NCBI GenBank assembly: GCA_001770205.1
Contig: MEQL01000054.1
Coordinates: forward strand, 58,236 to 78,235
Length of the DNA: 20,000 nucleotides
Reading direction: 5' to 3'
Origin: Bdellovibrionales bacterium RIFOXYD12_FULL_39_22
GTDB taxonomy: Bacteria > Bdellovibrionota > Bacteriovoracia > Bacteriovoracales > Bacteriovoracaceae
The position numbers and the translations under genes are program-made. The notes beneath the pieces were generated by a model. The model searched no databases, was not told where the DNA came from, and worked only from the letters and a program-made list of their open reading frames with translations. This document shows, one piece after another, positions 6,521 to 14,243 of the stretch; within the stretch, counting starts at the first letter, position 1, and each line of letters opens with the position of its first letter.

Positions 6521-8149
6521 TCAAGCAACTTTCTTCTTTGTAAATGAAATTCTTGCCCCTGCCGGAATGGCCGGAATACGATCTTCTGGTAAGACATAAC
6601 CAGGTATTTTACTCTCATCAACGACATCTATCTGATCTGGATTCATATATGACTGGGCATATTGCATGTAGATCTTTTGATCTATAAATAGATCAAAGAT
6701 ATCCTCATCTATATGATTATCTTTACGCATAAAACCCAAAATACGCAGTGCCTCAGAAAGTGTCTTCCCTTTCTTATATGGCCGATCTGGGGCAGTCAAG
6801 GCCTCAAAAATATCAGCAATCCCCATCATTCTGGCCTCCCAAGACATGTCCTCACGAGTTAATCCATTGGGATAACCTGTTCCATCCATTTTCTCATGGT
6901 GCCCGCCGGCAATTTCGGGAATCCGCATCAAATCCTTAGGCAAATGCAACTCCTTTAACATCTTTATTGTCATCTCGCTGTGATGATTAATTATCTTTCG
7001 CTCATCATCAGTTAGCGTTCCGCGGCCAACCGTCAAATTTTTCACTTCATCATCACTTAAAAGTGGTACTACTTTATCATCGAGATCTCTCCATGTTCGT
7101 TTGGCCAATTCACGCACTCGCTCTTGATCTTCTGGCCGCATAAATTCGCTACCAGTATTAGCAAAACGCAAAAAACTCTTTTCTTCCCCAAACCGTCGAA
7201 GCAACAATTGATACTTTTTTTCATTCCAAATATATTTTTCTTCATCAAAACAACCATTTTCCAAATCCTTCACCTTCTGCTCTAGTAGCCTAATTTTTTC
7301 ATCGCGCGCCAACATCTCAAAACGCAAATCCACAACATTGATCCGATCAAAAATGGCCTCTAACTTTGTGGCCTTATCAATAATATGCACCGGCGTGGTA
7401 ATTTTTCCACAATCATGAAGCAAGGCGGCCAACTTCATCTCTCGTCGCTGCTCAGGGTTCATAGAAAAATATTTAAGTGGCCCGCTACTCTCTTTTGCGG
7501 CCGCATCTGCAATCATCAGCGCCAATTGTGGAACTCGTTTACAGTGCCCACCGGTGTACTGGGACTTATCGTCAACAGCAGCAGCAATAACACGAACAAA
7601 AGATTCAAAAAGTTTATCTAAATCTGCTCGCAAAACCGCATTATACAAAGTCATTGAACTTTGTCCGGCCAACATATTGGCCAGATGAATTTCATCATCT
7701 TCAAACTGACGACTCTTACCCTCAACTCCCTTGCGAACTAGCTGAATAACTCCAATGCAAATCTGTTCTGAATTTACCAGCGGAAGTGCAATTAGCGAGA
7801 CTGGATTTTTTTCTGTGTGATCTTCCACTTTATCATAACTTTTGCGCTCAAAACGATTATCCTCATAGACGTTTTTAATTACTTCTTTCTCCACCATCAT
7901 GGAAACGTAAGTTGCCATATGCCGCAAATAAGAGGGGCCTGGTTCTGAAATATCACCACAATCTACCTGCATATGATCATCACCAGTCAGAGAGTAAAGC
8001 GTTCCTCCATCCGCATGAGTTAATTCCAACATGGCCATTAGAATTTCATGCAAGATCTGCTTTAGCTCAGTATGCCGCGCAATGCGCTGACTCAGTTTAT
8101 GTAACTGATCAACACGTTGGTAATATGCCTCTATCTCCACTCGTCCCAT
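6521..8149 (-). CDS. GAF + HD-GYP phosphodiesterase (probable c-di-GMP hydrolase) with a long insertion in the HD domain
   Basis: GAF-like ADGGTLY...LIALPL...IGVIQLV...FEDDE, then YTGGHCKRV, AALLHDCGKI, HHEKMDGTGYP and ADIFEALTAPDRPYK. Start moved to ATG 8149 because the ORF-track extension crosses AT-rich intergenic DNA and overlaps the divergent gene. Confidence 0.9.
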   Translation of the reverse strand: MGRVEIEAYYQRVDQLHKLSQRIARHTELKQILHEILMAMLELTHADGGTLYSLTGDDHMQVDCGDISEPGPSYLRHMATYVSMMVEKEVIKNVYEDNRFERKSYDKVEDHTEKNPVSLIALPLVNSEQICIGVIQLVRKGVEGKSRQFEDDEIHLANMLAGQSSMTLYNAVLRADLDKLFESFVRVIAAAVDDKSQYTGGHCKRVPQLALMIADAAAKESSGPLKYFSMNPEQRREMKLAALLHDCGKITTPVHIIDKATKLEAIFDRINVVDLRFEMLARDEKIRLLEQKVKDLENGCFDEEKYIWNEKKYQLLLRRFGEEKSFLRFANTGSEFMRPEDQERVRELAKRTWRDLDDKVVPLLSDDEVKNLTVGRGTLTDDERKIINHHSEMTIKMLKELHLPKDLMRIPEIAGGHHEKMDGTGYPNGLTREDMSWEARMMGIADIFEALTAPDRPYKKGKTLSEALRILGFMRKDNHIDEDIFDLFIDQKIYMQYAQSYMNPDQIDVVDESKIPGYVLPEDRIPAIPAGARISFTKKKVA

Positions 8150-8326
8150 AGTAGACTTCTCGGCAAATTTAATATTAATTTGATAAGTTAAGGGCATAAA
8201 AATTGTAAAATGTTTTATATTTAATATAATTATTTCACAGCGCGTCATTAATTGATGCATTTTGTCATAAATGGAGCTAAATTCTCCATAAACATGGCCG
8301 ACTATTTTCCTTTTTAAGGAGTTTTT

Positions 8327-10153
8327 ATGCATACATTCAAAAAATTAAATAGAATTAATAAAATTAAAACTTCCAAAGATATCTTAATTGCCCTTTTAAA
8401 ATTATTGGCAAAAGAAGTTAAGCTTTTACTTATCTCCGGCAAAAATGGCCAGCTAGGTGAGCACCTAAAGAATTTGCCATCTGATTTGATTTTTAAATTA
8501 GGCCTTGGCGTTAGCGGGACCAGATTAGAAACTAGATTTCAATTTAAAACGAAACATTCTAGAGAGACTCAAGAAGCGACTTTACTTTCCATCATCGCAG
8601 AAAATCGTGATACTGTTTTTGGCAAAGATCACGAATTTTCCTCTATTAAAAGTATCGAAGATTTTCAAAAACTTGTTCCCATCCAAACCTATGAAAGCTT
8701 GGCCCCCTATATTGAGAGACATCTTCAGGGAGAGGCCGACGTAATTGTAAAAGGCCGCCCGATATCTTATGCCACCACTAGCGGAACCACCGGCAAACCC
8801 AAGTTTATTCCTATCACATTGCGCGCAAAAAAAACCTCTCATCAAGCAGTTTCTCGTCTTTGGGCCTATACCGTCTCCAAAGAGCGGCCTCAATCCTTTG
8901 ATGGAAAAATTTTGGCCATTACTTCACCTGCAGAAGAAGGAAGAACGGAAGATGGAACCATTTACGGCTCTACTTCTGGCCAAATGTTACAGGGTATGAG
9001 CAAGGCCATTCGTAAAAAATATGTACTTCCTTATGAGGTGTTAACCATCGACGACTACGATTCAAAGTACTACTGCATTATATTATTAGGGATGTTAGAA
9101 AATGTCTCCTTCATCTCTACCGCCAACCCCTCAACCCTCACTCTTTTGGCCAATAAAGGTAATGAGCTAAAAGATAAACTTTTACATGATATCCAACATG
9201 GAACTCTTAATCCTAATCTAAAAATTAGCGACGAAATCCGCAAAATTGTGGAAAATAAAATTAGTGCCAAGCCGCAAAAGGCCCAAAACCTTCGAAGGAT
9301 CATCGAAAATGATCCTGAGAAAAAACTTCGCCCTAAGCATTACTGGCCAGCGCTTTGTACCATTGCATGCTGGACGGGTGGAAATTCTAGCACTTTTTTA
9401 AAATCTATCAAGGACTGGTATGGCGACGTCACGATCAAAGACCTTGGATATCTTGCCTCCGAACTTAGAGGATCAGTTCCTCTATCTTCTAAATCTTCCG
9501 CTGGCGTTTTGACCATCACTGAAAACTTCTTTGAATTTGTTGATGTTGATGACATTGATTCTATCAAACCCACCTACCTAACTTGCGACCAACTAGCTTT
9601 AGGCAAACGCTACTATATATTTTTCACTTCTCGTGCTGGCCTTTATCGCTACCACATCAACGATATTATTGAAGTGAAAAGTTTTGAAAATAATACTCCA
9701 GCAATTGTTTTTGTACAAAAGGGCAAAGGGGTTACCAATATCACTGGAGAAAAATTGTATGAGCAGCAATTAATGATGGCCATCAAAAACAGTGAAGAGG
9801 AAACTAAACTGCATACTGCCTACTATATGGCATTGGCGAAATATGCAGAGTCCAAATATGAGTTATACACTGAATTTGAGCGCAATAATCTATCTATTGA
9901 TGAAAAGAAAAAATTTATTGCGGCCGTGGAGAAAAATTTAAGCTCCATTAATATCGAATATAAGGCCAAGCGTGCGTCTCTTCGCCTTCCTCCAATTGAG
10001 TTAAAAGTTTTGGCCTCTGACTCCTTCCAAAGTTTTAAGAAGTGGAGAATTGATCAAGGTATTCGCGAGGCGCAGTTTAAAACTGTGCCTCTGACTAACG
10101 ATATTAATATGATTAGGCCTCTAACCGTAGTAGAGACGATCTCCCTACAGTAG
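8327..10153 (+). CDS. GH3-family (auxin-responsive GH3-like) adenylate-forming acyl-acid amido synthetase
   Basis: N-terminal QEATLLSIIAENRDTVFGKDHEF...VPIQTYE, P-loop TTSGTTGKPKFIP, motif II GYLASE, FFEF, motif III GLYRYHINDII and GEKL. Strong SD TAAGGAG. Confidence 0.9.
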   Translation: MHTFKKLNRINKIKTSKDILIALLKLLAKEVKLLLISGKNGQLGEHLKNLPSDLIFKLGLGVSGTRLETRFQFKTKHSRETQEATLLSIIAENRDTVFGKDHEFSSIKSIEDFQKLVPIQTYESLAPYIERHLQGEADVIVKGRPISYATTSGTTGKPKFIPITLRAKKTSHQAVSRLWAYTVSKERPQSFDGKILAITSPAEEGRTEDGTIYGSTSGQMLQGMSKAIRKKYVLPYEVLTIDDYDSKYYCIILLGMLENVSFISTANPSTLTLLANKGNELKDKLLHDIQHGTLNPNLKISDEIRKIVENKISAKPQKAQNLRRIIENDPEKKLRPKHYWPALCTIACWTGGNSSTFLKSIKDWYGDVTIKDLGYLASELRGSVPLSSKSSAGVLTITENFFEFVDVDDIDSIKPTYLTCDQLALGKRYYIFFTSRAGLYRYHINDIIEVKSFENNTPAIVFVQKGKGVTNITGEKLYEQQLMMAIKNSEEETKLHTAYYMALAKYAESKYELYTEFERNNLSIDEKKKFIAAVEKNLSSINIEYKAKRASLRLPPIELKVLASDSFQSFKKWRIDQGIREAQFKTVPLTNDINMIRPLTVVETISLQ

Positions 10154-10179
10154 AGACTAATCGTATAAGTGGAGAATTT

Positions 10180-11277
10180 ATGGCACTTACAAACTTAATA
10201 AAAAACCTCTCTCTTGTTTTATTGTTAGTCTTAATTACCTATGCCTCTACCACTAATGCAATCTGTGCTGAGAACACTTTTGCTCACGATCTAATAACCG
10301 GAGTCAACAAAACCTTCTATCAATTAGATACCGATTCAGTTAAAGTTCGTAATTTTTCTCACCGCTACGCCATTGCCTACACCAAGTGGACGCCTGATGA
10401 TGGCAATGATAATGGACATGTCATTATCTATAACCATGGACTACAAAGCCATCGTGGTTGGTTTTATGAGACTGCCGAACATTTAAGGGCCTCTGGTTTC
10501 ACTGTTTATGCCTACGACCGTATCGGATCGGGGGAATCAACTTCTCTTGTTCCGGCCTCTCGCTACAGCGCAGAAATTGTAAATCTAAAAGGCCATATCC
10601 ATAGTTGGTATGTGTACATTAAAACCCTAGAGATGATGAAAGAAATTGCGAAGGAAGAAAATCCTTCTGCAAAAATCCATCTATGGGGAAATAGCTTCGG
10701 GGCCAAAATCGTAACGGCCTATATAATTATAAACGGAGACAAAGATGATCTCTCTTCTACAATTTTTTCCACTCCAGGACTTTATCGTAACGAAAAAAGC
10801 ATGCCTCTTCCCTTCTCTAAGCTAAAATATCTATTTTCGGGTATGGATCAATATCTTCCATCACCAATCTATCCTGTAAATGGCGATAATGGCGCAGGAC
10901 TCTTCACCTCAACAGAGCCCTACTTTTATAAAATAAAACATGACAACCTGTCGCTGCGACAATTCACCAAAATGTTTTATGATCAGGCAACTAAGTTGGA
11001 TAAATTTATTAAAGTACATGCCAACGGAACCTCGGCCTTAAACGATAATCCCCGACTTTATTTGTTAGTGGAAAATGATCCCATGATGGATAATATTCAA
11101 ACAATAAAGCATATACAACAAAATCGCCCGCAAGCTATTGCTAAATATTATCCCGGGGGGCCAGACCATCGTCATTTTCTTTCGTACACTATTGATCGAG
11201 AAGAAGAAATGGAAGATGTCGTAAATTTTTTACTTGGCAATATTAATGCGCTGGAAAATAGCATCGAGTTGGATTAG
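10180..11277 (+). CDS. Alpha/beta hydrolase (lysophospholipase/monoacylglycerol lipase-like) with predicted signal peptide
   Basis: HGLQSHRGWF, YAYDRIGSGES, nucleophile elbow GNSFG (Ser172), candidate Asp in ENDPMM and candidate His in DHRH. N-terminal LSLVLLLVLITYA...AICA. SD GTGGAG. Confidence 0.85.
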   Translation: MALTNLIKNLSLVLLLVLITYASTTNAICAENTFAHDLITGVNKTFYQLDTDSVKVRNFSHRYAIAYTKWTPDDGNDNGHVIIYNHGLQSHRGWFYETAEHLRASGFTVYAYDRIGSGESTSLVPASRYSAEIVNLKGHIHSWYVYIKTLEMMKEIAKEENPSAKIHLWGNSFGAKIVTAYIIINGDKDDLSSTIFSTPGLYRNEKSMPLPFSKLKYLFSGMDQYLPSPIYPVNGDNGAGLFTSTEPYFYKIKHDNLSLRQFTKMFYDQATKLDKFIKVHANGTSALNDNPRLYLLVENDPMMDNIQTIKHIQQNRPQAIAKYYPGGPDHRHFLSYTIDREEEMEDVVNFLLGNINALENSIELD

Positions 11278-11303
11278 TACAATACAACAAAGAAGAGTTA
11301 GCG

Positions 11304-12473
11304 ATGAAAATAAAATCACTGAAACTACGCCAAACCAATATTCCCTTTGTTTTAGTTTTTAAACATGCCCTTAAATCACGCTCCGAAGTGGATGGCCTGA
11401 TCGTAGAACTAGAAACGGAAAATAATATTGTGGGGTACGGAGAAGCTCTACCACGTGAATATGTCACCGGCGAAACCACAGAATCAGTAACCGGCCATCT
11501 GATCAATACCATCTTTCCAAAAATGCGAGGAATGGAATTTAATAATATTGATGATGTGCTTTATTTTTTAGATAATTTTTACGATATCTTTGACAGTCTT
11601 ACGGAATATGATCTTTGCGTAAAAGCAGCAACTGAACTTGCGCTATTGGATGCCTACGGAAAAGAAAATAAAAAATCGGTATTAAATCTTTGCTCCTCGG
11701 CCTGCGGCCTCACTCCCAAAAATGAAATTGTCTATAGTGGAGTCGTCTCTGCAGATACTCCCATTATTGTAAAACAAATTTTAAAACAATATCAAAAAAC
11801 TGGAATAACTCAAATAAAACTAAAAGTCGGTAAAGATTTAGAGCATGACATAAAAAACATAGAACTATCTCGCGAAATAATTGGCAAAAATGTCGAGATC
11901 AGGGCCGATGCCAATGAGGCCTGGGACTTGGCCTCTGCCAAAAAGAATCTTCCGATACTAGCAGAAATGGGCGTGGTCTCTATTGAACAACCAATGCCAA
12001 AAACTTCCCGCGATGACTATCCAAAGCTTATGGAATTTCTACGCGGAAAAATAGAAGTATGTATTGATGAAAGTCTTTGCTCCATCGGTGATGCTAAGTG
12101 GATGATCGAAAATGGAGGTGCCTCCCTCTTTAATTTACGCATTTCTAAAAACGGTGGATTATCCAACGCACTTAAAATTTTTGCCATGGCCAAGAGCAAT
12201 GGAATTAAATGTCAATTGGGTGCACAAGTGGGAGAAACCTCTCTCCTTTCTTCTGCCGGACGCATTTTAGCGGCATTATGTGGAAACTTTCTTTTCCATG
12301 AAGGTTCCTTCGGAACCCATCTGCTTTCTTATGATCTCACAAAAAATCCCTTGAGCTTTGGGAGCGGTGGGATTGGGGATCTCTCCTACTTAAATTTAAC
12401 AGATAGTATGGGCCTAGGTATCAAGGTCGAAGGCAAACTGCTCGATAAAATGACAAAAAAAATCCTGGAATAA
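11304..12473 (+). CDS. Enolase superfamily enzyme, muconate-lactonising-enzyme (MLE) subgroup, substrate unknown
   Basis: GYGEALPREYVTGET capping domain, ELALLDA, KLKVG (K172/K174), metal ligands D202 (DANE), E228 (EQP) and D255 (DES), NLRISKNGG, GAQVGET and HEGS. Confidence 0.88.
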   Translation: MKIKSLKLRQTNIPFVLVFKHALKSRSEVDGLIVELETENNIVGYGEALPREYVTGETTESVTGHLINTIFPKMRGMEFNNIDDVLYFLDNFYDIFDSLTEYDLCVKAATELALLDAYGKENKKSVLNLCSSACGLTPKNEIVYSGVVSADTPIIVKQILKQYQKTGITQIKLKVGKDLEHDIKNIELSREIIGKNVEIRADANEAWDLASAKKNLPILAEMGVVSIEQPMPKTSRDDYPKLMEFLRGKIEVCIDESLCSIGDAKWMIENGGASLFNLRISKNGGLSNALKIFAMAKSNGIKCQLGAQVGETSLLSSAGRILAALCGNFLFHEGSFGTHLLSYDLTKNPLSFGSGGIGDLSYLNLTDSMGLGIKVEGKLLDKMTKKILE

Positions 12474-12574
12474 ACTAATCTCTATCACGCAATAGATAGT
12501 ATCAATTTCCAAATCTAACGATTGTTTTGCAATATAAATACAGCAATATATAAATATCAACTGGAGGATAATTT

Positions 12575-13084
12575 ATGTTGAGTATTAATAAAGAAGCTGT
12601 ACGTCAGCAAACATCAAACCAAATTTTGAAAGAGCTAAAATCCCCATCCTTTGAAGATGTTATTTTCTACGCTATCGAGCAGGAAGGGCGGGCCCATGAT
12701 CAGTTTAGTCGGTTGTCTAAGAAGGTCAAAAACAAAAAGGCCCGAGAAATTTTAAATAAGATTGCCCAAGAAGAACTGGAGCATCTAAAAGAACTAGAAA
12801 ATCTATTAGATGCTGGGCCAGATAATTTCCAAATTCCAAAAATTGAATATCATAGCTTCCTTGAAGAAAAGCAATTGATTGATAAAATAACCCCTGATGC
12901 CAGCGTACAAGAAGCACTACTTTTTGCCATTGGCCATGAGCATGCTACTTACAATCTCTATAAGGATTTGGCCCACGCCTCAGATAGTGTGGAGGCGCGA
13001 GATACTTTTGTTAAACTCTCTAGAATGGAGATTGCTCATAAAATTGAACTGGAAAATTGGTATAAACAGCTCTGTCTGCAATAG
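12575..13084 (+). CDS. Ferritin-like/rubrerythrin-family di-iron four-helix protein without a rubredoxin domain
   Basis: Duplicated E...ExxH pattern: AIEQE...EELEH and AIGHE...MEIAH. No CxxC pairs. SD GGAGG. Confidence 0.85.
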   Translation: MLSINKEAVRQQTSNQILKELKSPSFEDVIFYAIEQEGRAHDQFSRLSKKVKNKKAREILNKIAQEELEHLKELENLLDAGPDNFQIPKIEYHSFLEEKQLIDKITPDASVQEALLFAIGHEHATYNLYKDLAHASDSVEARDTFVKLSRMEIAHKIELENWYKQLCLQ

Positions 13085-13103
13085 CAAATAAAACTAAAGA
13101 TGG

Positions 13104-14243
13104 TTAGCGAAATTCTTTAAGTAGAGCTTTGGCGATAATCATCATCATAACTTCATTGGTCCCAGCTCCAATTTCATTTAGCTTATTATCTCGGAGATAT
13201 CTCTCAACTGGAAATTCTCTGCTATATCCATAGCCTCCCAGTATCTGAATTGCATCTAACGCAATTTTAGTGGCCATTTTGGGAAGTGCTAATTTAACTT
13301 TCGCGGCAACATCTGGGCCACGATTCCCTCTATCATAGTCACAGGCCACCGAATATAAGAAGTGCTTCATCATTTCGGAGTCAGTGGACATCTCCGCCAG
13401 CATACGTTGAATCATCTGAAAATCTCCAATGGGTTTTCCAAACTGCTGACGCTCATTAGCATATTTGCCACACACTTCCACACAAGCTCGAGAAATCCCT
13501 AAAGAAATTCCCGCAATAGTAATACGCTCGATCTCCAAATTTTTCATCATGTGATAAATTGAATCGCCTTCGTTTCCTACTAAATTGGCCGCTGGAACTT
13601 TAGCATTTTCAAAAATAAGTTCAGCAGTAGGAGAACCTCTCATTCCCATTTTATGAATATCTTTTCCTACAGAAAATCCTGGAGTCCCCTTTTCCACGAT
13701 GAAAGTAGAAAGGTTCTTGCGTTCATCCCCAGTCCGCGTATAGACATAGGCAACGTCTGCATACTTGGCATTGGTAATCCACATCTTGGCACCATTTATG
13801 TTGTAATAATCCCCTTCTCGTCTGGCCCTAGTTTGAATACCTACCGCATCTGAACCATTTCCTGGTTCACTCATGGCCATGCATCCAACATGCTCCCCAG
13901 AAATAAGTTTGGGCAAATATTTTGCTTTTTGCTTCTCCGAAGCATTGTTGTTAATATTGTTCACACAAAGCATCGAATGCGCTAGATAGCTCAGAGTAGT
14001 CGAAGCACATACTTTGCCAAATTCATCCATTACAATAGTTGCCGCAGTCGCACCTAGTCCAGAACCACCGTATTTAGGATCGGCCGTAATCCCCAACAGT
14101 CCCAATTCTCCCATCTTGGCAAAGGCCTCTAGATTGAAGCTCTCATCACGATCGTGCTTTTCCGCATAAGGAGCTAACTCTTTTTTAGCAAATTCCCGAC
14201 AAACATTTTGCAATTCTCTCTCTTCATCACTAAAAAACCACAT
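13104..14243 (-). CDS. ivd: Acyl-CoA dehydrogenase, isovaleryl-CoA dehydrogenase-like
   Basis: AMSEPGNGSD, NGAKMWITN, KMGMRGSPT, RQQFGKPI and QILGGYGY. The Glu in LEIER together with EIGAGT (Ala rather than Glu at the MCAD catalytic position) is the IVD arrangement. Confidence 0.8.
   Translation of the reverse strand: MWFFSDEERELQNVCREFAKKELAPYAEKHDRDESFNLEAFAKMGELGLLGITADPKYGGSGLGATAATIVMDEFGKVCASTTLSYLAHSMLCVNNINNNASEKQKAKYLPKLISGEHVGCMAMSEPGNGSDAVGIQTRARREGDYYNINGAKMWITNAKYADVAYVYTRTGDERKNLSTFIVEKGTPGFSVGKDIHKMGMRGSPTAELIFENAKVPAANLVGNEGDSIYHMMKNLEIERITIAGISLGISRACVEVCGKYANERQQFGKPIGDFQMIQRMLAEMSTDSEMMKHFLYSVACDYDRGNRGPDVAAKVKLALPKMATKIALDAIQILGGYGYSREFPVERYLRDNKLNEIGAGTNEVMMMIIAKALLKEFR

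Follow-up and report, generated by a model that had tools for sequence, protein, structure and literature searches.

A widespread gene cassette of a bacterial GH3 ligase and an atypical enolase-superfamily enzyme with a putative role in lipoamino acid synthesis

Do a ligase of the Gretchen-Hagen GH3 family, a lipase-like hydrolase and an enolase-superfamily enzyme belong together, and what could they make? This question is raised by three same-strand open reading frames (ORFs) at positions 8327-12473 (+) of a window of 20,000 nucleotides, by which we mean the whole stretch of DNA that was analysed, from Bdellovibrionales bacterium RIFOXYD12_FULL_39_22 (contig MEQL01000054.1, positions 58,236 to 78,235). 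An earlier interpretation made from the letters and their ORFs, here called the sequence-only reading, had suggested that the three genes, all of them acting on carboxylic acids, could form one uncharacterised pathway for an acyl conjugate or lipid signal, and had named co-occurrence or fusion of the trio across phyla as the check. Both were found, and they support the idea of a unit. Regarding its product, we give a probability of roughly one half to the proposal, drawn by analogy, that the cassette makes and tailors a lipoamino acid, meaning a fatty-acyl amino acid and possibly a membrane aminolipid, by a variant of the logic of the enzymes OlsH and OlsI.

Conservation, fusions and gene contexts of the cassette

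A scan of one genome per species yielded 515 loci related to the window GH3, the best 80 of which were kept for neighbour counts, with enolase-type homologs counted within 1.5 kb and hydrolase homologs within 2.6 kb of GH3. The enolase-type gene lies beside GH3 in 45 of the 80 loci from more than 10 phyla, always on the same strand, whereas a hydrolase homolog is near GH3 in 25 loci (absent from 55) and hydrolase and enolase are both present in 23. The conserved core of the cassette is the pair of GH3 and enolase, and the hydrolase is its variable member. Among 40 relatives of the organism a GH3 ortholog was found in five, with an MR_MLE gene directly after it on the same strand in four. The loci with neither enolase nor hydrolase (28 of the best 80) belong to metagenome-assembled genomes of the Bacteroidales, Treponema and Fibrobacter type, and 27 of them form one clade of the GH3 tree (28 tree rows, 100% support in the Shimodaira-Hasegawa-like approximate likelihood ratio test, SH-aLRT); in this clade of animal-gut Bacteroidales, Treponema and Fibrobacter (L050-L100), the neighbours of GH3 are instead a HAD hydrolase and a PlsC-type acyltransferase. 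Outside the partner-free loci the enolase gene is present in 45 of 52; among the seven misses two are located at contig ends, and the genome of L021 has its enolase gene on another contig. The carriers of the cassette are labelled Bdellovibrionota, Melainabacteria/Obscuribacterales, Pseudomonadota, Nitrospirota, Nitrospinota, Acidobacteriota, Bacteroidota, Chloroflexota, Cyanobacteriota and Armatimonadota.

The link also holds in the reverse direction. When a profile of 42 GH3-linked enolase-type proteins was searched against 401 genomes of the window's phylum, 24 genomes gave a strong hit (at least 300 bits), and GH3 is adjacent in 23 of these; GH3 accompanies none of the next six enolase loci, which score below 215 bits and one of which is without any tblastn match. 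Furthermore, the pairwise distances of GH3 and of the enolase partner are correlated with r = 0.855 (44 loci, 946 pairs), a value that is reached by none of 999 permutations and to which shared host ancestry contributes. The enolase profile had 26,789 matches in the library, and Pfam analysis of the best 150 revealed fused proteins: a triple fusion of FA_hydroxylase, GH3 and MR_MLE with 1207 aa (P0036), Hydrolase_4-MR_MLE fusions (P0132, P0134, P0143) as well as fusions in the reverse order (P0144, P0147), and a fusion of Haem_oxygenas_2, an iron redox enzyme, with MR_MLE (P0146). That the three genes are just unrelated co-oriented neighbours might be read from the absence of the hydrolase from 55 of the 80 loci, and from the housekeeping genes and the HD-GYP gene that flank the trio in the window, which are not conserved with it. 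However, we regard this as extremely unlikely, as it is contradicted by the adjacency of GH3 and enolase in both searches (45/80 and 23/24), by the same gene order in other genomes, by the fused proteins and by the correlated divergence. The grouping of the trio is beyond chance.

Four types of gene context can be distinguished. Type A, with the order GH3-hydrolase-enolase, comprises the window, loci labelled Thalassolituus, Bermanella and Pseudoalteromonas (L026), and L139, a genome of the window's own family with 62-65% identity; the order is identical in L023, L024, L026 and L139. Type B, in other Bdellovibrionota, has the order GH3-enolase-hydrolase and a divergent FAA_hydrolase gene. Type C, in Obscuribacterales, reads hydrolase-enolase-GH3, is preceded by an ICMT/PEMT-type methyltransferase and continues with HpnA/OleD-like short-chain dehydrogenases/reductases and an Mpo1-like gene. 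Type D consists of a small protein, an FA_hydroxylase, GH3 and the enolase, with hydroxylase and GH3 sometimes fused, and its hydroxylases match the OlsE model NF052566 over the full length with 195-199 bits, under the cut-off of 475. Since these recurring partners are lipid enzymes, the acid substrate of the ligase is read as a fatty acid. The GH3 tree was built quickly under LG+G4, with SH-aLRT as its only branch support; in it the window groups with the type A loci (98%) and not with the type B Bdellovibrionota, a placement that would fit transfer of the whole cassette; 13 of the 94 GH3-clustered ORFs were left out of this tree by a motif and length filter, namely hydroxylase-only and truncated genes, including those of L023, L024 and L066.

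Some further observations were made at these loci. A conserved protein of ~149 aa without Pfam or NCBIfam match (cluster c14) is encoded beside the GH3 cassette in L036, L048, L052, L053, L056, L057, L059, L060 and L094; it precedes the hydroxylase-GH3-enolase genes where the hydroxylase occurs, and is not present in the window. The sole strong Arg-type enolase homolog without a GH3 neighbour (L142, G285 contig 5) is surrounded by a cytochrome P450 gene and a gene of the sodium/bile-acid symporter family. Tandem GH3 pairs occur in L088 of the gut clade and in L029 of the Bdellovibrionota. L050 and L051 are near-identical contigs, with GH3 branch lengths of 0 and 0.0018, yet one bears the label Anaerovoracaceae (Bacillota) and the other Muribaculaceae (Bacteroidota), which is probably a binning or labelling artefact.

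The three proteins and the proposed pathway

The ligase belongs to the GH3 family, as its N, M and C domains (PF03321, PF23571 and PF23572) are matched in Pfam with E-values of 2.2e-73, 1.9e-18 and 9e-17, that is with 247.6, 66.7 and 62.3 bits against a cut-off of 23.6. All three nucleotide-binding motifs are kept, TSGTTGKPK at 151-159, YLASE at 375-379 and GLYRYHIND at 438-446, and their core residues are invariant in an alignment of six orthologs; the reference motifs quoted for plant GH3 proteins are SSGTSQGRPK-, YGSSE- and GLYRYRLGD-like (PMC12493201). The protein carries an N-terminal extension of ~70 aa, and its closest solved relatives are plant JAR1, GH3.15 and GH3-1 (E 4e-32 to 7e-30). 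OlsH (NF052613, equivalog) is the only NCBIfam family that matches at E < 0.001, with 120.5 bits against a curated cut-off of 620, followed by FlxY at E 0.0085. Judged from these scores, the window GH3 is a relative of OlsH and not its equivalent. A second GH3 gene with ~27-28% identity is present on contig 57 of the same genome (L018, 7782-9296); it has no enolase neighbour and adjoins genes for a weak MMPL-like membrane protein and a radical SAM protein.

The enolase-type partner matches MR_MLE_C (1.7e-38) and MR_MLE_N (8.5e-07) in Pfam, and its AlphaFold2 (AF2) model, with a predicted local distance difference test (pLDDT) score of 94.7, has the capping domain and the modified TIM barrel of the MLE subgroup, structures of which were found by Foldseek at template modelling (TM) scores of 0.79-0.85. 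Racemase, epimerase, cycloisomerase and o-succinylbenzoate synthase (OSBS) relatives could not be separated by Foldseek, as their scores are alike. Among solved structures, dipeptide epimerases (3jva, 1jpm, 3r0k, 3q45) and the N-succinyl Arg/Lys racemase 2p88 come closest, with muconate cycloisomerases and N-succinylamino-acid racemases (NSAR)/OSBS scoring almost equally. In NCBIfam the partner is matched best by muconate cycloisomerase (124.8 bits), followed by OSBS (106.3 bits), and neither match reaches its cut-off. The KxK motif at the end of beta2 (K172-x-K174) and the metal ligands D202, E228 and D255 on beta3, beta4 and beta5 are invariant in 42 sequences, and K172, K174 and the three ligands are all located at the ends of predicted strands in the model.

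The catalytic lysine at the end of beta6 is not present in the window protein. Strand 275-278 of the model ends at R279, and the sequence N277-L-R-I-S-K-N-G-G has a gap-free alignment with N-I-K-L-M-K-x-G-G in each of the five best PDB relatives, which puts R279 in the place of the catalytic beta6 lysine and K282 in the second-shell place; in the chain numbering of the alignment they correspond to K268 and K271 of the dipeptide epimerase of B. subtilis. For the B. subtilis enzyme K162 and K268 are described as the two catalytic bases and K271 as second-shell residue, the beta2 and beta6 lysines being conserved in the MLE subgroup, and the beta6 lysine of OSBS is described to work via a cation-pi contact and not in acid/base catalysis (10.1101/2022.03.03.481873). 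The site is arginine in all five PDB alignments of the window protein, in all 42 GH3-linked sequences and in all 24 strong hits of the phylum; four weaker GH3-free paralogs in the phylum retain N-x-K-L-M-K. Among the best 150 library matches it is arginine in 133 and lysine in 17, and according to these alignments the lysine that defines the subgroup is missing from most of the family. In the same set of 150, R51, Y53 and K174 are kept in all proteins, E333 in 149 and H21 in 140. In dipeptide epimerases the free ammonium group of the substrate is bound by an acidic DxD motif where beta8 ends; the predicted beta8 end here reads E333-G-S335, with Ala, Ser or Gly at position 335 in 149 of the 150, and its register relative to the DxD motif is uncertain.

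The arginine at beta6 argues against ordinary two-base racemisation, and a site that tolerates either arginine or lysine would suit an electrostatic role as in OSBS. Therefore, one-base chemistry by K174, such as elimination, dehydration or cyclisation, appears more likely from the alignments than ordinary two-base racemisation. Alternatively, the partner could be a true N-acyl-amino-acid racemase or epimerase giving rise to an N-acyl-D-amino acid lipid, with for example K282, H21 or Y53 as second base. Its best sequence and fold matches, which are dipeptide epimerases, the N-succinyl Arg/Lys racemase and NSAR/OSBS, speak for this, as does the lysine at beta6 in 17 of the best 150 representatives. 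However, we consider it improbable, because the lysine on which the two-base mechanism depends (10.1101/2022.03.03.481873), K268 of the B. subtilis dipeptide epimerase and K263 of NSAR, is arginine in each of the three sets compared (5/5, 42/42 and 24/24).

For the preferred proposal, synthesis and tailoring of a lipoamino acid, three steps can be envisaged. In the first step, which is suggested by GH3 family membership and the biochemistry of OlsH, the cytoplasmic GH3 protein would adenylate a free, possibly hydroxylated, fatty acid with ATP and join it to the alpha-amino group of an amino acid, so that an N-acyl amino acid with a free alpha-carboxylate would be formed. The enolase partner has its closest characterised relatives among enzymes with substrates of just this class, and therefore action of the partner after the ligase would be the simplest two-gene logic. 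In the second step the enolase partner would bind the carboxylate via Mg2+ held by D202, E228 and D255, and K174 would remove the alpha-proton. Since the second catalytic lysine of the racemases is R279 here, a one-base reaction would be a likelier outcome than ordinary racemisation; for example, the head group could undergo beta-elimination or dehydration, or a cyclisation could take place. Tentatively, with odds clearly below even, the GH3-linked enolase proteins may form a new functional family, judged from their sequences, and catalyse a reaction new to the superfamily on a membrane lipoamino acid, for example yielding an alpha,beta-dehydroamino-acid lipid by one-base beta-elimination or cyclising the head group.

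The third step would be carried out by the hydrolase, which matches Hydrolase_4 and Abhydrolase_1 in Pfam (1e-20 and 8.2e-16; PF12146 at 74.6 bits). The predicted triad consists of S172 within GNSFG (170-174), D300 and H332, with an HG oxyanion motif at 86-87; D300, H332 and H86-G87 are conserved in 14 hydrolase sequences, and the nucleophile is Ser in six and Cys in eight of them. The top Foldseek hits of its AF2 model (pLDDT 88.5, a single helix at 2-30) are all monoglyceride lipases, namely Rv0183, Yju3p and human MGLL, and the family match, the nucleophile elbow with Asp and His, and the lipase-like fold with a cap place the protein among the Hydrolase_4/monoglyceride-lipase-like enzymes. 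Weak NCBIfam matches concern the phospholipase BipL, lysophospholipase L2 and proline iminopeptidase-type models. Inspection of the sequence shows a signal-peptide-like pattern at the N-terminus, in which a positive residue is followed by 12-15 hydrophobic residues and by small ones at -3/-1. Similar hydrophobic N-termini, most of them ending small-x-small (AXA-like), occur in L015, L021, L023, L026, L029 and L071, and the whole pattern was seen in most of the type A and type B relatives inspected (L015, L021, L026, L029 and L071). The window hydrolase thus appears to be exported, and the earlier description of it as lipase-like and exported-looking agrees with both the Foldseek hits and this N-terminus. 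Hydrolases of the Obscuribacterales type and those fused to other domains are without a signal-peptide-like N-terminus, and the fused hydrolase domains mostly have a Cys nucleophile. The hydrolase is the least constant member of the cassette in presence, nucleophile and location. In the lipoamino acid pathway it would act as an exported serine hydrolase in acyl-ester chemistry on a lipid in the envelope. It could transfer a second acyl chain to this lipid with a phospholipid as donor, cleave a chain off, or supply the first step with its free fatty acid.

A different order had originally been suggested by the sequence-only reading. Here a carboxylic acid would first be set free by the hydrolase, with an ester, a lactone or a lipid as its source. 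The free acid, for example a 2- or 3-hydroxy fatty acid, would then be isomerised, dehydrated or cyclised at its own alpha-carbon by the enolase partner, and GH3 would conjugate the product to an amino acid in the end. This order is still a live rival, although an unlikely one with a chance of perhaps one in five in our view. Enolase-superfamily enzymes need a free carboxylate with an alpha-proton, which the substrate of GH3 has as well, and one-base chemistry fits the beta6 arginine. Moreover, hydrolase-enolase fusions in both orders suit consecutive steps, an Mpo1-like protein of the 2-hydroxy fatty acid dioxygenase family and FA_hydroxylase are neighbours in other lineages, and an exported lipase could free fatty acids outside the cytoplasm. 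However, N-acylated amino acids and not fatty acids are the substrates of the characterised enzymes nearest to the enolase partner, and the hydroxylase neighbours resemble OlsE, which is described as a modifier of the finished aminolipid head group. We know of no MLE-subgroup enzyme that acts on a simple fatty acid, which counts against the order as well.

Several points also weigh against the synthesis of a lipoamino acid as proposed here. The arginine at beta6 removes the residue that is needed by the known N-acyl-amino-acid racemases, so that the similarity to them may not extend to the reaction, and at the same time this arginine is not universal, with lysine in 17 of the best 150 representatives. 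GH3 scores far under the OlsH cut-off and the hydrolase has no OlsI match, and function is hence transferred by analogy only. The context with OlsE-like hydroxylases comes from other lineages, as a profile search finds no OlsE-like gene in the genome of the window. Finally, the hydrolase looks exported here and is cytoplasmic and fused to the enolase in other lineages, which is awkward for one shared role, and its nucleophile is Ser here, but Cys in eight of the 14 relatives.

If the tentative reading of a reaction new to the superfamily is true, the product of the cassette would be an envelope lipid or lipid signal of a class not seen before, present in more than ten bacterial phyla. To our knowledge, OlsH, described in 2025, is the sole bacterial GH3 enzyme with a proven role, and the cassette defines a large and phylogenetically wide subset of the bacterial GH3 homologs (the 515 related loci) with a fixed partner that has an atypical active site. 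Through it, new lipoamino acids or aminolipids may become accessible, as may a new reaction of the enolase superfamily; the fusions point to steps that belong together, and culturable carriers such as Pseudoalteromonas make it testable.

The locus in the window

The features of the locus are collected in Table 1. The arrangement of three co-oriented genes with gaps of 26 nt, described before, is borne out by the ORF listing. The claim that each gene has a Shine-Dalgarno site holds for GH3, with AAGGAG 5 nt before its ATG, and for the hydrolase with GGAG, whereas just a weak AGAAGAG precedes the third gene. The promoter-like site matches the consensus at 10 of 12 positions and is the best on the + strand within 8000-13300 in a consensus scan; such a scan reports consensus matches only, with 19 sites found and 15.9 expected from shuffles. 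Terminator-like sites were not found by consensus scan on the + strand between the genes of the trio.

Table 1. Features of the GH3-hydrolase-enolase locus, with positions in the window.
Feature	Positions	Strand	Remarks
Promoter-like site TTGTAA-16 nt-TATAAT	8203..8230	+	between the divergent genes, ~97 nt upstream of the GH3 start
GH3-family acyl-acid amido synthetase	8327..10153	+	608 aa; ORF call and Pfam
Spacer	10154..10179	+	26 nt, contains GGAG ahead of the hydrolase start
Hydrolase_4/monoglyceride-lipase-like alpha/beta hydrolase	10180..11277	+	365 aa
Signal-peptide-like N-terminus of the hydrolase (aa 1-27)	10180..10260	+	K8, hydrophobic run, TNA before I28
Spacer	11278..11303	+	26 nt, weak purine-rich site ahead of the enolase-type start
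Atypical MLE-subgroup enolase-superfamily enzyme	11304..12473	+	389 aa; Pfam, alignment and AF2 model

The divergent neighbour at 6521-8332 (-) has GAF and HD/HD_5 domains in Pfam. If its longest ORF is taken, this gene would overlap with the start of GH3 by 6 nt; in-frame ATGs are located at 8260, 8248, 8197 and 8149, and therefore a later start and a true divergent promoter region are likely. Upstream of the trio, genes for isocitrate dehydrogenase, citrate synthase, LipB and LipA were found by Pfam, and downstream a rubrerythrin-like gene, an acyl-CoA dehydrogenase and CoA-transferase A/B, with no break in GC content seen across the window. The sequence-only reading had correctly placed the trio among housekeeping genes and divergent from an HD-GYP gene. 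This neighbour is not conserved with the cassette, and the idea of a link to DSF-like (diffusible signal factor-like) signalling was dropped, because the HD-GYP gene accompanies the cassette in just one of 86 clustered loci, which is the window itself. The rubrerythrin/ferritin-like gene at 12575-13084 (+), which has a strong GGAGG site of its own, is no conserved neighbour of the cassette; it matches the encapsulin-cargo ferritin EncB weakly, with 29 bits against a cut-off of 90.

Comparison with known systems

A characterised pathway with this trio had not been known to the sequence-only reading, and in the library that we searched, too, no paper was found in which Gretchen-Hagen GH3 is combined with a partner of the enolase superfamily, some of the "GH3" hits being glycoside hydrolase family 3, as judged from titles and abstracts. 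However, the same reading had described bacterial GH3 homologs as poorly characterised and had used the plant synthesis of jasmonoyl-Ile as formal parallel, and for both points a nearer, characterised two-gene analogue now exists. OlsH of Singulisphaera acidiphila is a GH3-like enzyme that makes N-acyl ornithine from a free fatty acid with ATP and Mg2+, and OlsI, an alpha/beta hydrolase of the same operon, O-acylates N-acyl ornithine to the ornithine lipid (PMC12493201; Rivera-Najera et al., J Biol Chem 2025). More than 7500 bacterial OlsH homologs are reported there, and the authors expect the use of other amino acids (PMC12493201). The account of OlsH and OlsI is repeated in a review of 2026 (PMC12971839), in the main text of which the terms "racemase", "epimerase" and "D-amino" do not occur.

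The cassette shares with OlsH/OlsI (and OlsG) the combination of a GH3-like ATP-dependent ligase and an alpha/beta-fold enzyme in one operon-like unit as well as the three motifs of the ligase, and OlsE-like hydroxylases accompany the GH3 clade in other lineages. Unlike OlsI, the hydrolase of the cassette is monoglyceride-lipase-like and apparently exported. Moreover, the cassette has no OlsG methyltransferase, and its enolase-superfamily partner is without counterpart in the Ols pathway. The OlsI model NF052614 (cut-off 385 bits) gave no match with the window hydrolase at E <= 1 and 14.1 bits with the hydrolase relative in L013; in the genome of the window two other loci were matched weakly by OlsI. 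No OlsH, OlsI or OlsE above the cut-off was found in this genome, whose assembly is 94.6% complete, so that their absence is unproven. The possibility that the cassette is the OlsH/OlsI pathway itself was rejected due to the 120.5 against 620 bits of GH3, the missing OlsI match and the extra enolase partner.

With the plant enzymes JAR1, GH3.15 and GH3.12/PBS3, its best solved relatives (E 4e-32 to 2e-19), the window GH3 shares the three-domain layout, but it differs from them in being bacterial, in its N-terminal extension and in its lipid-type gene context.

The set of enzyme classes, an alpha/beta hydrolase, an MLE-subgroup enzyme and an adenylating ligase, is formally the same as in MenH-MenC-MenE. 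Hence the trio could also serve a non-lipid pathway of this kind, or one like muconate cycloisomerase with a lactone hydrolase, in which GH3 would amidate a cyclic or aromatic-derived acid in place of a CoA ligase. The sub-cut-off matches of the enolase partner to muconate cycloisomerase and OSBS agree with this, and so do the FAA_hydrolase neighbours at loci of Bdellovibrionota. Dienelactone hydrolase uses a Cys nucleophile, and hydrolases with such a nucleophile are found among the relatives. In addition, the beta6 lysine of OSBS is not an acid/base catalyst (10.1101/2022.03.03.481873), and a site of this kind would tolerate arginine. Nevertheless, a non-lipid pathway seems very unlikely to us, since the ligase is GH3 and not an ANL CoA ligase, the hydrolase has an exported-looking monoglyceride-lipase fold, and the GH3 clade is repeatedly accompanied by lipid genes, among them OlsE-like and PlsC-like ones. 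Furthermore, men genes are already present elsewhere in the genome, with menF-menD-menB on contig 25 (L110) and a menC-like, menE-like and menH-like set on contig 12 (~41000-43800), where the menE-like (267 against 330 bits) and menH-like (192.7 against 209 bits) genes score just under the curated cut-offs. With these two sets at hand, the trio was rejected as the missing MenH, MenC and MenE.

The enolase partner has the fold, the KxK motif, the metal ligands and the positive second-shell residue in common with dipeptide epimerases and N-succinylamino-acid racemases (3jva, 1jpm/1tkk, 2p88, 1sja), whose substrates, N-acylated amino acids with a free carboxylate, are the product class of the GH3 ligase. 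However, it differs from them in the arginine at beta6, and the invariant R51, Y53 and E333 together with the near-invariant H21 mark a separate family, which moreover is tied to GH3, a link not known for those enzymes. What is new here is most likely a GH3-dependent pathway of the lipoamino acid type, comparable to that of OlsH and OlsI, to which an atypical step of the enolase superfamily would have been added.

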